Positions 12,794 to 62,103 of a DNA stretch of 64,000 bases are shown piece by piece. Positions within the stretch are counted from its first letter, which is position 1. Each line of letters begins with the position of its first letter. The notes under the pieces were generated by a model. That model was not told where the DNA came from. It saw only the letters and a program-made list of their open reading frames with translations, and made no database searches. Source of the stretch: an uncultured virus (IMG/VR IMGVR_UViG_3300037466_002145) (lineage: Duplodnaviria > Heunggongvirae > Uroviricota > Caudoviricetes); the IMG/VR virus record IMGVR_UViG_3300037466_002145, positions 19,148-83,147 of that record. One strand, 5' to 3'. Both the position numbers and the translations under genes were made by a program.

Positions 12794-13623
12794 TACTTAC
12801 CTTTGCTTAGGTCGGTGACATTCGTGACATTACCAACAATCCAATGTTCGTAATCGCGAATGGCAGTCAAAACGTCGGCGCGGTCGTCTGCCGTCATGGT
12901 AGACAGAACCGTCTTAGCTTTGACTTTGGAGTGAGAGAGAATGTAGTTGAGATAGGTTCGCGGATTATAACCGTCCTTGGTCGGCGCGAACTTCTTGATG
13001 GCATTTTCAAGTGACAAATCTTTATAACCGAAGTCCGATTCAAAGAGGTAGGACTCCAGGGCTGCCATGCCGTCATCTTCGGATGCGAAGATAGCGAATG
13101 AACCATCGAAGCCGATGGCCTTATGCGTCTTGGCGAAGTTGTCGTAGAGAAGCTTGCCAGGGTTGTTATATCGCCATGATATTGAGCCACCAGTGCGGAC
13201 TTCAAAAGTGCCGTCTGGTTTCTTCATCGCGAAATAATACTTTTTGATCTTTTCGATGGTTGGGAAGACGGGAATCTTCGCTTCAAGGGTCGCGGCTTTG
13301 GCCTGTGCCGCTTGTGCGGTTTGCGTTGCCGTCTTGACCTGTTCGGTCAGAACCTGCGTCTGTGAAATACTCGATTGCAGTTGTGGGGCGATCTTCTTGG
13401 TCGTCGTGACCGTCGCGGCCTGATAGGCAAGGAACCCCGAGAACAATGCCGTAACGAAGATATGGCCGAGTGATTTCCACATCGGTTGAATTTCGACTGT
13501 CTTGGTTTCGACAGGGATCGGCGGCGGGTTTTCACTAATTTTCGGTGTTTCAACAGTTGCTGAAACAGGCGTATCTACTGAAACAGGTTGAACAGTAGTA
13601 TCAATAATTCTTTTTTCAGCCAT
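12793..13623 (-). CDS. Membrane-anchored lysozyme-like (WRYNNPG family) protein, paralog of 12170-12793
   Basis: TM segment (HIFVTALFSGFLAY), coiled coil, then SWRYNNPGKL...FAIF..EDDG...KKFAP..DG.NP..Y. Confidence 0.7.
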   Translation of the reverse strand: MAEKRIIDTTVQPVSVDTPVSATVETPKISENPPPIPVETKTVEIQPMWKSLGHIFVTALFSGFLAYQAATVTTTKKIAPQLQSSISQTQVLTEQVKTATQTAQAAQAKAATLEAKIPVFPTIEKIKKYYFAMKKPDGTFEVRTGGSISWRYNNPGKLLYDNFAKTHKAIGFDGSFAIFASEDDGMAALESYLFESDFGYKDLSLENAIKKFAPTKDGYNPRTYLNYILSHSKVKAKTVLSTMTADDRADVLTAIRDYEHWIVGNVTNVTDLSKGK

Positions 13624-13655
13624 TGCTTATACCCAATTTGTGAGGAAATACGTCC

Positions 13656-13662
13656 TATTTAG
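13656..13662 (-). promoter_or_regulatory. Putative T4-type late promoter CTAAATA
   Basis: CTAAATA about 35 nt upstream of the 13623 gene; the same motif recurs upstream of other genes (e.g. near 26757, 32190, 35434, 40363, 63264). Confidence 0.5.
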
Positions 13663-13667
13663 TAAAA

Positions 13668-14023
13668 TGCCTGCCTTCTGTTTCCAGGTGGCAGGCGACC
13701 CATGAAGCTTACGCCGCGAGGCGGATATCTTCGATAACGCTATTATCGTTTGCGTTTATACGTTTTCTTCGCGTTAACCCAGCTTAGATCGGGTACTGTC
13801 TTCTTCTCTTTTAACGTCATTCGATCCTATTTCGCGCCCATAAAGAAACACACTAACGAGTCCTACTTTGTCCAACCGCGAAGATGGTCATATCCTAACT
13901 CGCTTCTGGTATACCCTTCATCTAGTGTGAAGGCCCATGCGGTCCAATAGTAGTGTGTTTTTTGGTGGACGCGTCGGCTTTGCAGCCGAGTCATGTCCGT
14001 ATTATTACAAAAGCGTCATACAG
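13668..14023 (-). ncRNA. ssrA: Two-piece (circularly permuted) tmRNA, alphaproteobacterial type; tag ANDNSVIEDIRLAA*
   Basis: Acceptor piece ends ...CGCGTCCACCA (13963); coding piece starts GGGCGCGAAATAGGATCGA (13839) giving G3:U70; tag reading frame 13753-13709; 3' ACCTGGAAACAGAA hairpin. Confidence 0.92.
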
Positions 14024-14309
14024 TAATTACTTCTGCCTCTTTAGTTGAGACAATTCCTTACCCATTTCTTTGATCTTCTCATTCAGCATGGCGATTTTTT
14101 GATCCTTACGCGCGAGTTCGCCGTTAATGCCGCCCATGATGTGATACAAAGTGTATATCTTTGGCACCTTCAATTCACCTCCGATGATTTCACGTAGAAC
14201 GTGAGTCTCACCAGTTTTATGAAAGTCAGTTACCAATTCAGCCGCCAAGTCCATTAGGGCTTGAGGCTTGCCATACTTATACAATGGATCAATTTTTATC
14301 ATGGTGATT

Positions 14310-19105: not shown

Positions 19106-19608
19106 GCAGCCTTTAGAATTTCCAACCGACGTTCGATCCATTTGGAGTTCGTCAGGTCGGCATGAAGGGCAAGGACAAGGGCGGTGAACTCACCCGTGTT
19201 CCAATCCACGTCACCGATACCCAACAACATATCGTGACGGGGTTCGTAAGTCTTATTCTGATTTTTCAGGTCGGCCAGCGAGGCGACCCGAAACGGGGTC
19301 ACCACCACGCATTTCACCAGCCCATGGTTGTGGTCAAGTGCATAGCGAAGATGTTTCATTCGTTTGTAGTTCTGCGGTGTCTTCTGCCACTGGCAATCCT
19401 CACTGCGTAAGAACTGCGGTTGGTCTTTTTCGAAGTTCGTATACATCAGATTTGCTCCATAGGCCATAAACTGATGCGCCCATAGGGAGAGGACTACCGA
19501 GCCATCTTCGGCTATGTTGGACCATCCTCGGGCCATCTTGCGATAGTCGGGGAAGATCGAGCCCATAGCCTTATGGGCCTCAAGTAGCGATGTGTAGATC
19601 ATCGTCAT
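19102..19608 (-). CDS. Hypothetical protein
   Basis: 168-aa ORF; GWS...DGSVVLSLW; ends in AA. Confidence 0.6.
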   Translation of the reverse strand: MTMIYTSLLEAHKAMGSIFPDYRKMARGWSNIAEDGSVVLSLWAHQFMAYGANLMYTNFEKDQPQFLRSEDCQWQKTPQNYKRMKHLRYALDHNHGLVKCVVVTPFRVASLADLKNQNKTYEPRHDMLLGIGDVDWNTGEFTALVLALHADLTNSKWIERRLEILKAA

Positions 19609-19946: not shown

Positions 19947-20027
19947 TGGAACGCCCGACAGGATTCGAACCTGCATCTTATCCAGTTACCTTTGTCCTTG
20001 ATTCGTATTCAAGAGGGATACGGGCGC
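19947..20027 (-). tRNA. Non-canonical tRNA-Arg(ACG)-like gene with relocated D-loop
   Basis: GCGCCCG-TA-TCCCT-CTTGA(AT ACG AA)TCAAG-GACAAAGG-TAACTGGATA-AGAT-GCAGG TTCGAAT CCTGT-CGGGCGT-T-CCA. Confidence 0.7.
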
Positions 20028-20516
20028 TTAAGCGCTTGAGACGCATACGATTTCGTTGCGCTCGGATTTGATCAGCATAAAGAGAATAGGAATGATACCA
20101 CAGACGGCGATCACGTTCGGTAACACGCTGTAACACATTTTTACTAGCCGCCGCAAAGGCAGCCGCCGCGTCATGTTCAGTCATGTTGAAGTTCCCCGTT
20201 TAGGCAAGAATTATATCCCCATTCTCGCCAAATTTCAAGCTTAAAAGAAGGTAATGGGTCAAGTAATTCCCCGCTACTTGACCCTGAAATACCTAATTCA
20301 GAGAACGACGATCAAAAGACTCCGTGATGGCATACCCTACTTCGTCGTTACTCAAAACATTGCATTGAAAGCCTGCCTTGAGTTCTCGTGCTATGAGTTC
20401 CAGGGCTCGCGAGAGGGGACGGACAAATCTCGCAACATGTTCCGTTCCCTCTTTTCCCCATACATCCACTGCAATAAATGATTCCTCAATTACAGCCATG
20501 GACACCCCCCTTATGC

Positions 20517-22577: not shown

Positions 22578-22661
22578 TGGAGCTACCTGAGGGATTCGAA
22601 CCCCCGCGTCTTTCGAGACTGATTACAAAACAGTTGCCGTCGTCCACTTGGCTAAGGTAGC
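22578..22661 (-). tRNA. tRNA-Thr(TGT) with long variable arm
   Basis: G1-C72/C2-G71; TT-TGT-AA loop; 12-nt variable region CTCGAAAGACGC; CCA. Confidence 0.8.
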
Positions 22662-25870: not shown

Positions 25871-25987
25871 CAGATTTGCTTTTTTAAGGGTTGGAATCGA
25901 ACCAACTACACTTCGCTTTGAATGCGAATGCTCAACCAAATGAGCTTCCCGTCCAGATGGACGATATTTGTTTGCTGAAACAAATCT
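25871..25987 (-). ncRNA. CAGC-stem unit 3 enclosing tRNA D, anticodon (TCA) and T arms with no acceptor end
   Basis: AGATTTG-TTTCAGCAA..GCTC/GAGC, TTCGC-AT TCA AA-GCGAA, GTTGG TTCGATT CCAAC..CAAATCT-G. Confidence 0.75.
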
Positions 25988-26004
25988 TAATCTGAAAAAT
26001 TTAG

Positions 26005-26109
26005 CAGGCTTACTTTGATCCAGGCTCGCGCCTGTTTCGGGATCGAACCGAATAACCAACTGAGTTGCCTCAGTAAGTATCTACCAGATTGTTTTGCTGC
26101 AATAAGCCT
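26005..26109 (-). ncRNA. CAGC-stem unit 4 with T-arm-containing module
   Basis: AGGCTTA-TTGCAGCAA..ACTGAG GCAA CTCAGT, TTCGG TTCGATC CCGAA, CAGGC GCGA GCCTG..TAAGCCT-G. Confidence 0.75.
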
Positions 26110-50375: not shown

Positions 50376-50457
50376 TGGAGCCCTGGACAGGAATCGAACC
50401 TGCATACTCCGATTACGTCGTTGACGACCGCTTAGAAGGCGGGGACGATACCAGGGC
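50376..50457 (-). tRNA. Non-canonical tRNA-Arg(TCT)-like gene with relocated D-loop
   Basis: GCCCTGG-TA-TCGTCC-CCGC(CT TCT AA)GCGG-TCGTCAACGACG-TAATCGGA-GTAT-GCAGG TTCGATT CCTGT-CCAGGGC-T-CCA. Confidence 0.7.
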
Positions 50458-61986: not shown

Positions 61987-62018
61987 ATTTTACAAATGTT
62001 TGCGAATAGATTGTTAAG

Positions 62019-62103
62019 CTCGAAGGGTAGGGCTCGAACCTACGACGGGATTTCTCCTACGGATTAACAATCCGTTGCCTGCTACCAACTCGGCTACCTC
62101 CGA
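62019..62103 (-). tRNA. tRNA-Asn(GTT) with long variable arm, no CCA, extended acceptor stem
   Basis: U1-A72, G73; ACGGA-TT-GTT-AA-TCCGT; variable arm GGA GAAA TCC; flanks 62008-62019 pair with 62104-62115. Confidence 0.82.

Follow-up and report, generated by a model that had tools for sequence, protein, structure and literature searches.

The minus strand of a 64,000-nucleotide (nt) stretch of DNA from an uncultured virus of the Caudoviricetes (IMG/VR record IMGVR_UViG_3300037466_002145, positions 19,148 to 83,147; the whole stretch is termed the window) carries at 20027..19947 a tRNA-Arg(ACG)-like gene with swapped D-arm pieces, an observation that is confirmed here. This element, A, is likely to be a genuine gene that encodes a non-canonical tRNA-Arg(ACG), and a member of a widespread phage class (Arg with ACG, UCU, UCG or CCU and Ile with UAU or GAU anticodons), in which the block of positions 10-21 has been moved 3' of the anticodon arm. 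At the level of sequence, such genes are present in many phages, the predicted swapped D stem and a 15:48-like pair covary, and three arms (acceptor, anticodon and T) keep the canonical form. The initial annotation, prepared from the letters of the window, had pointed to a second such element; element B has indeed the same layout with the anticodon TCT.

Structure of the rewired tRNA gene

A shares with the canonical class I tRNA-Arg (E. coli tRNA-Arg ICG; RF00005) a 7-bp (base pair) acceptor stem followed by discriminator and CCA, a 5-bp anticodon stem with a 7-nt loop holding U33, ACG and the purine A37, and a 5-bp T stem with the consensus loop TTCGAAT (Table 1). U8, an A14-like base, G18G19, an A20-like base and the location in a tRNA cluster are likewise shared. 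In contrast to the canonical molecule, A lacks both a D-arm hairpin in the stretch from position 9 to 26 and a separate variable loop of 4-5 nt, and its long-range D stem would enclose the anticodon arm. U8A9 is separated from the anticodon stem by just 5 nt, and the hairpin of positions 10-25 is absent there. The connector behind the anticodon stem has 22 nt (GACAA, AGG and TAACTGGATAAGAT) and contains the D-loop-like TAACTGGA; C11 and C12 of the 5' strand pair with the GG at 19989-19990 (-). Both the order first described (acceptor strand, T8A9, then TCCCT directly before the anticodon stem) and the intactness of T arm, acceptor stem and CCA were found as annotated, with five pairs in the T arm, seven in the acceptor stem and the CCA at 19949-19947. 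By its acceptor, anticodon and T arms A is a tRNA, and it lacks the hairpin D arm and falls below the Rfam threshold.

Table 1. Positions of elements A and B and of further features in the window
Feature	Position	Strand	Remarks
A, whole gene, tRNA-Arg(ACG)	19947..20027	-	81 nt, CCA encoded
A, acceptor stem, 5' strand	20021..20027	-	7 pairs with 19951-19957, including the wobble G1:U72
A, U8 A9 (TA)	20019..20020	-	invariant across all members; the parsers demanded TA in these columns
A, 5' strand of swapped D stem, TCCCT	20014..20018	-	topological equivalent of positions 22-26
A, anticodon arm	19997..20013	-	5 bp (20013-20009 with 20001-19997), loop ATACGAA
A, anticodon ACG	20004-20006	-
A, linker GACAA	19992..19996	-	between anticodon stem and 3' strand of swapped D stem
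A, 3' strand of swapped D stem, AGG	19989..19991	-	equivalent of positions 10-12
A, D-loop-like strand TAACTGGATAAGAT	19975..19988	-	U13 A14 A15 C16 U17 G18 G19 A20 ... U48; adjoins the T stem
A, T arm	19958..19974	-	5 bp, GCAGG / TTCGAAT / CCTGT
A, acceptor stem, 3' strand	19951-19957	-
A, discriminator T (U)	19950	-
A, CCA	19947-19949	-
B, rewired tRNA-Arg(UCU)	50376..50457	-	layout as in A
B, 5' strand TCGTC	50444-50448	-
B, anticodon TCT	50434-50436	-
B, linker CGTCAAC	50420-50426	-
B, 3' strand GACG	50416-50419	-
B, D-loop-like strand TAATCGGAGTAT	50404-50415	-
B, CCA	50376-50378	-
Mechanical open reading frame (ORF)	19978..20184	-	68 amino acids (aa), overlaps the 5' 50 nt of A
Two-piece permuted tmRNA	13618-14054	-	alphaproteobacterial type
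tRNA-Thr(UGU)	22578-22661	-	84-86 nt, as the two following
tRNA-Lys(UUU)	34495-34580	-
tRNA-Asn(GUU)	62018-62103	-
tRNA-like element, loop TCA	25888-25949	-

Detection by gene finders and covariance models

In the window, ARAGORN predicted 20 tRNAs plus a tmRNA, each of them on the minus strand; A and B were not among these, nor was any tRNA-Arg. Applied to the whole 83-kb virus record, which is a fragment (38% complete by CheckV), it found no canonical tRNA-Arg and again missed the two elements. Neither was found by Rfam at gathering thresholds. With relaxed filters the Rfam tRNA model (RF00005) scored A at 28.1 bits against a gathering cut-off of 29, deleting 15 D-arm model positions and placing a 19-nt insertion in the variable region, and B at 29.7 bits; the canonical tRNAs of the window reach 39-71 bits. 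Concerning eight relatives in named phages, six scored 29.7-36.4 bits and one 25.2, while one gave no match at E <= 1; the canonical tRNAs adjoining them scored 55-64 bits. Additionally, the rewired element remained uncalled by ARAGORN in 16/16 loci tested (out of 46 loci then collected). Poor scoring by standard scanners had been anticipated in the initial annotation and is borne out by these results.

Two covariance models were built, one from UCU-type relatives without A and one from ACG-type relatives without B. In searches of the 83-kb record the former recovered A (49.2 bits, E-value = 4.8e-13) and the latter B (53.1 bits, E-value = 4.5e-12), and the next-best match was a canonical tRNA-Pro at 31-34 bits. 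As a model built without A finds it at this score, A exceeds chance resemblance. It is hardly credible that A is a protein-coding segment or a chance resemblance: the 68-aa ORF overlaps it and a coding sequence (CDS) of phage Felix O1 overlaps the homologous element, but the element is conserved with differing flanks in many phages, varies by paired substitutions and not by codon position, and is found at E 1e-12 to 1e-13 by models built without it.

Relatives in phage and bacterial genomes

A blastn search with the region around B matched 15 phage records (eight Streptomyces and seven Escherichia phages) at 80-90% identity, and A had weaker matches in Streptomyces phages, Xanthomonas phage XacN1 and Rhizobium phage RHph_I1_18. 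The copy of coliphage TH42 matched 225 named phage records, including Felix O1 and other Felixounavirus, phi92-like, 121Q-like jumbo and Streptomyces phages. Among the 60 matches listed with their annotation, seven carry a tRNA label (two tRNA-OTHER, one tRNA-Undet, one tRNA, two tRNA-Leu, one tRNA-Val) and none is labeled tRNA-Arg; for the others, either the copy or the whole record has no annotation, or a CDS call overlaps the copy. In Felix O1 (L046, NC_005282.1, ~25951-26029) the CDS of an HNH endonuclease overlaps the rewired tRNA gene. Where CDS or ORF calls overlap in this manner, the start sites of adjoining genes may need revision. TH42 is a Kuravirus with a rewired tRNA-Arg(UCU) copy, and the single tRNA-Arg(TCT) reported for Kuravirus (PMC9965538) may be the same gene.

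Exact-pattern scans of IMG/VR with five patterns gave 38, 77, at least 120, at least 118 and at least 117 loci; the third pattern, which was AT-rich, returned chiefly chance matches, with ~40 true members among the 118 distinct full-context matches listed. The parser accepted 193 distinct sequences, of which two with other anticodons were mis-parses. The remaining 191 members, counted without own-genome duplicates and loci of the bacterial-genome scan and passed through a filter that kept just the Arg and Ile anticodons seen, comprise 112 Arg (ACG 56, TCT 50, TCG 4, CCT 2) and 79 Ile (TAT 68, GAT 11) sequences. A scan of bacterial genome contigs gave 120 matches, nearly all by chance, and five were judged true by eye (L375, L427/L471, L439, L457). 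L427/L471 is a Bradyrhizobium sp. contig, and ACG-type rewired tRNAs also occur in the bacterial assemblies L375, L439 and L457, the last with about 12 additional nt in its D-loop-like strand. Those in bacterial assemblies presumably stem from prophages or from phage contigs binned with metagenome-assembled genomes.

Covariation of the swapped D stem

A set of 108 members was selected with no condition on the swapped stem; 3/3 pairs are formed in 50 of them and 2/3 in the other 58. The UCU/UCG type comprises 38 sequences, namely every member of this set whose linker and strand together have 11 nt. Here the 3 nt after U8-A9-U pair with the 3 nt directly before the TAA of the D-loop-like strand. 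All 114 of 114 cells are paired, with compensatory changes and four and three pair types at the two varying positions: pair 11-42 is C:G in 38/38, pair 12-41 is U:A in 26, G:C in 8, A:U in 3 and C:G in 1, and pair 13-40 is C:G in 31, U:A in 5 and G:C in 2. A fourth pair is possible in 8/38 only. The ACG/UCG type was aligned from 53 sequences (51 ACG members and two of the 19 remaining ones). Pair 12-38 is C:G in 53/53, and pair 11-39 is formed in 52/53 (C:G 50, G:C 1, U:A 1, unpaired 1). Pair 14-33, adjoining the anticodon stem, is C:G in 33, G:C in 6, U:A and U:G in one each and unpaired in 12. The acceptor helix of the same 53 sequences is 100% paired with two-sided changes at 7/7 pairs.

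The 17 members outside both alignments hold other complementary combinations (e.g., CGG/CCG, CAG/CTG, CCG/CGG, CTC/GAG, CGA/TCG). Members with a 5' strand other than CC (CGG, CAG, CTC, GC and others) pair with the strand preceding TAR and not with the invariant GG. In the 79 Ile-type sequences 237/237 cells of the swapped stem are paired, with C:G replaced by A:U in three and by U:A in two. Across the 23 distinct strand combinations, prefiltered for at least 2/3 pairs, 59/69 cells pair against a shuffled mean of 34.2, and 0/5000 shuffles were as high. Covariation of the swapped D stem among homologues, on which the initial annotation had staked its proposal, is found in the relatives. At its core, the interpretation given there, namely a D stem made of one strand on either side of the anticodon arm with a GGA-bearing D-loop-like strand behind it, is supported by the comparative data.

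A decayed or rearranged tRNA pseudogene without function is very improbable. Such an origin would fit the low standard-model score of 28.1 bits and the missing canonical D arm; against it, the layout recurs in phages whose hosts are unrelated (191 distinct sequences), four helices show compensatory changes, and this one window alone holds two copies with different anticodons. A class II variable-arm hairpin in the 11 nt after the anticodon stem was also considered as a candidate and rejected, because two of its four pairs form in just 8/38 and 13/38 sequences. As a side observation, the first anticodon-stem pair (27:43) is never a standard one in the Ile type (79/79, mostly U opposite U), and it is unpaired in 11/38 sequences of the UCU type.

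Tertiary pair and identity signals

After the swapped stem the strand reads U-A-R-Y-(Y)-G-G-N, which is the D-loop consensus of positions 13-20, and it stops one base short of the T stem. In the alignments its A14-like and GG positions are invariant. Its third base covaries with the base that immediately precedes the T stem: in the 79 Ile sequences, whose search pattern left both positions free, the combination is A:U in 46, G:C in 28, G:U in one and another in four, and in at least five non-overlapping pairs of close relatives both bases have changed. This is the behavior expected of an R15:Y48 Levitt pair, with which the two bases would correspond.

Functional tRNAs that plainly lack a D arm, similar to mitochondrial tRNA-Ser(AGY), with an extended anticodon stem and a GG strand that is a flexible connector not docked on the T loop, offer another explanation, which we regard as unlikely. 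In its favor, the secondary structure is formally D-armless with a long connector in the Rfam alignments, RNAalifold sees three helices only, and translation in E. coli tolerates a D-armless tRNA according to the accessible part of PMC11551756. Yet the connector keeps U-A-R-Y-Y-G-G-N with its invariant A14-like and GG positions, so that the D-loop loss of mitochondrial-type tRNAs is not seen; the 15:48-like covariation holds in 75/79 sequences, the T loop is canonical (TTCRANY), and the base after GG follows the amino-acid class.

All 112 Arg members have A at this place, and all 79 Ile members have U. The relocated loop had been noted to keep GGA, and this holds beyond A and B, since A also follows GG in all 39 Arg sequences that were retrieved without a GGA requirement. 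ArgRS in E. coli recognizes A20, C35 and G36 or U36, and IleRS recognizes A73. The predicted A20-like position next to G18G19 is present in both elements, and the Arg anticodon signals are found in A (ACG), in B (TCT) and, as NCG or NCT, in 112/112 Arg members. All 79 Ile members share the discriminator A; among Arg members it is mixed.

Genomic context and 3' ends

The 108 members are held by 145 loci, and 136 of these also carry tRNAs called by ARAGORN (median 11). Only rarely does a locus duplicate the anticodon of its rewired tRNA in a canonical one: 2/60 loci for TCT, 3/84 for ACG and none for TCG, CCT, TAT or GAT. Clusters with two to four rewired tRNAs were seen in IMG/VR (L260, L304, L007, L041, L063, L241, L296), and whole isoacceptor sets can therefore be rewired. 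Specifically, L260 has four rewired Arg tRNAs (TCG, ACG, TCT, CCT) and L007 has an Arg TCG together with an Ile TAT. The CCA is encoded in 86/112 Arg and 7/79 Ile members; in the window, 17/20 canonical tRNAs encode it, as do A and B. In the 83-kb record, a 38%-complete fragment, no gene for ArgRS (PF00750) or for a CCA-adding enzyme (PF01743) was found.

A non-decoding tRNA-like RNA, acting as decoy or inhibitor of a host tRNA-targeting nuclease or tRNA-binding defense protein, or as a processing or regulatory element, is a little less probable still than the plainly D-armless tRNA. Phage tRNAs counter tRNA-cleaving defenses, and D-loop differences were proposed as an escape route of T5 in the accessible part of a preprint (bioRxiv 10.1101/2025.03.26.645336); some E. 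coli phage copies moreover lack CCA and lie inside an 18-bp duplex. An RNA of this kind, however, would not readily account for canonical 7-nt anticodon loops with U33 and a purine at 37, for anticodons drawn from Arg and Ile sets only, which supplement the canonical tRNAs encoded in the cluster, for a CCA exactly after the discriminator in the 86 Arg members mentioned, or for the discriminator A in all Ile members.

The CCA-less copies were seen in coliphages Bas93 (L003, 280-385) and TH42 (L004, 280-390) and in L012 and L017, where leader and trailer are complementary and extend the acceptor stem to about 18 bp. This suggests that these copies are processed in another way, or are transcribed by themselves and carry a terminator-like stem.

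Proposed fold, decoding and opposing evidence

The layout can be described as a canonical tRNA with the block 10-21 transposed behind the anticodon arm. The 5 nt after U8 A9 would act as positions 22-26 and lead directly into the anticodon stem, and their middle nt would pair with 2-3 nt situated 3-7 nt past the anticodon stem, which would act as positions 10-12. Through this pairing the short D stem would enclose the anticodon arm, and stacking on the anticodon stem is possible just as for the canonical D stem. The chain would then proceed as U-A14-R15-Y-Y-G18-G19-N20 ... Y48 into the T stem, with the GG strand leaving the swapped helix at its elbow-facing end. From these sequence features we infer an RNA that folds to the L shape with the usual elbow between G18G19 and the T loop and the usual core contacts. 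The host ArgRS would be expected to charge A through A20, C35 and G36, and in phage mRNAs A would read CGN and B AGA and AGG. Function as a tRNA is plausible because HisRS, EF-Tu and ribosomes of E. coli accept a D-arm-less tRNA (PMC11551756, accessible part).

Several points weigh against this interpretation of A. Within its own ACG subgroup the two core pairs are nearly invariant, so that covariation there is thin, and free RNAalifold runs on both alignments predicted the acceptor, anticodon and T helices only and not the swapped stem, which was therefore tested by counts on the named structure. The pairing of AGG with the 5' CCT, as originally drawn for A, stands in its two core pairs (C11 and C12 with GG), in a stem that covaries in the relatives, whereas its third pair (T:A) is ambiguous and competes with a register containing a C.A mismatch. 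Linker and 3' strand of A add up to an unusual 8 nt, against 7 nt in 49/51 ACG-type sequences; the other case with 8 nt, Mildred21, has a different register. In the single-sequence minimum free energy (MFE) structure of A, UAUCC (8-12) pairs with GGAUA, and the MFE energies are unremarkable (z -1.16 for A and -1.87 for B). Some invariant motifs are partly imposed, because the search patterns were derived from A, B and their relatives; GGA was contained in the first and fourth of the IMG/VR patterns and TCCCC...AAAGGGTA in the fifth. The parser behind the 191 members itself required acceptor, anticodon and T helices, TA at 8-9, the TAR..GG strand and at least 2/3 pairs of the swapped stem. The lack of CCA in some E. 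coli phage copies of tRNA-Arg(UCU), with an acceptor stem ~11 pairs longer, is odd for a tRNA precursor. A canonical tRNA-Arg may also sit elsewhere in the phage, as the record is 38% complete. Finally, no transcript, charging or structure data were found for any member of the class.

The MFE pairing of UAUCC with GGAUA was examined separately and rejected, since it is not conserved. Concerning transcripts, small shares of a 2.5-kb stretch are present in 10 RNA-library runs; the four examined gave one contig of 168-220 nt each, none of them over A.

With regard to the class as a whole, we lean slightly towards the view that an undescribed type of tRNA with a strand-swapped L core (U8:A14, R15:Y48, G18G19/T loop, A20) is in use among phages that infect many bacterial phyla, coliphages and Salmonella phages among them. 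Such tRNAs would be charged by the host ArgRS or IleRS, take part in decoding and perhaps be invisible to host nucleases or quality-control systems that recognize the D arm. By analogy with the work on T5 and retrons, our favored guess is that the layout may be retained in order to escape host nucleases that read the D arm.

Comparison with known tRNA systems

To our knowledge, the strand order of the cloverleaf counts as universal except in organelles. In the red alga Cyanidioschyzon merolae tRNA genes can be circularly permuted, and processing restores the normal tRNA. The order of segments differs from the cloverleaf in these genes and in the rewired class alike; in the alga, however, the whole gene is permuted, whereas in the rewired class both ends keep their usual position and just an internal block has moved. 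The acceptor strands of A are in normal order with the CCA at the 3' end, which is not the arrangement of a circular permutation. No simple cut-and-join restores the canonical order, and the mature rewired RNA itself should therefore be non-canonical. Processing that restores the canonical order was rejected as an alternative, as this is an internal block swap and not a circular permutation of the molecule.

The D-arm-lacking mitochondrial tRNAs (metazoan tRNA-Ser(AGY) and those of nematodes) resemble the rewired class in the short connector that replaces the D arm. According to the accessible text of a review (PMC7609411), their D loop is lost, their T loops are often degenerate and their shapes flexible. 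The rewired class, in contrast, keeps a relocated D-loop sequence, a canonical T loop and a covarying 15:48-like pair, and it belongs to bacterial phages and not to organelles. An engineered D-arm-less "mini HisT" can be used by synthetase, EF-Tu and ribosome in evolved E. coli (PMC11551756, accessible part); this tRNA, unlike the rewired class, is man-made and without a relocated D loop, and in vivo it needed a PNPase mutation. The tRNASec, allo-tRNAs and 8/4 or 9/3 tRNAs treated in the same part of PMC7609411 are natural, in some cases phage-borne, of non-7/5 build and missed or mis-typed by scanners. They alter helix lengths and keep the order of the arms, whereas the rewired class has standard helix lengths and an altered strand order. 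Likewise, the T5 tRNAs, as far as described in the accessible part of bioRxiv 10.1101/2025.03.26.645336, differ from those of the host near the D loop, which was proposed to serve evasion of retron type I-A HNH nucleases, but they are ordinary cloverleaves with substitutions.

Searches of the literature, which did not cover supplements, figures and subscription papers, turned up no account of phage tRNAs whose D arm is relocated. In the accessible text of the 2020 review of non-canonical tRNAs (PMC7609411) the word phages has 0 occurrences and the rewired layout is not mentioned. A candidate structured RNA motif of viruses, DNAVirus_2961, which overlaps tRNA-Arg predictions (PMC10690425), may be identical with the rewired class. 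The class is large, mostly unannotated among phages and overlooked by the usual gene finders. If its members are charged and used, a tRNA core can assemble from a different chain topology, and ArgRS, IleRS, EF-Tu, RNase P and the ribosome tolerate the swap. In that case, the genes missed by ARAGORN would leave phage tRNA inventories, and the codon-usage arguments built upon them, systematically incomplete for Arg and Ile. Apart from this, the rewired tRNAs could be natural scaffolds for orthogonal tRNA engineering and a testable lead on how phages evade tRNA-directed defenses.

Host and other RNA genes of the window

The tmRNA of the window is of the two-piece permuted alphaproteobacterial type, with the tag ANDNSVIEDIRLAA (ARAGORN; RF04321, 93.1 bits), and such a two-piece tmRNA points to an alphaproteobacterial host. 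Rhizosphere and soil runs contain the stretch, and close copies are found in a Rhizobium phage and a Bradyrhizobium contig. Considering the tmRNA type, these runs and these copies, the host is probably a soil alphaproteobacterium.

Three of the canonical tRNAs, for Thr(UGU), Lys(UUU) and Asn(GUU), bear an extra arm in the variable region, consisting of a stem of ~3 bp with a GAAA tetraloop, where a short variable loop is usual. Finally, the tRNA-like element in the last row of Table 1 was not called by ARAGORN and matches the Rfam tRNA model with 38 bits over model positions 6-65 only. Its D, anticodon and T arms are present, the loop carries TCA, which would pair with UGA, and no complement for an acceptor stem was seen in its flanks; it may be a truncated or unusual tRNA.
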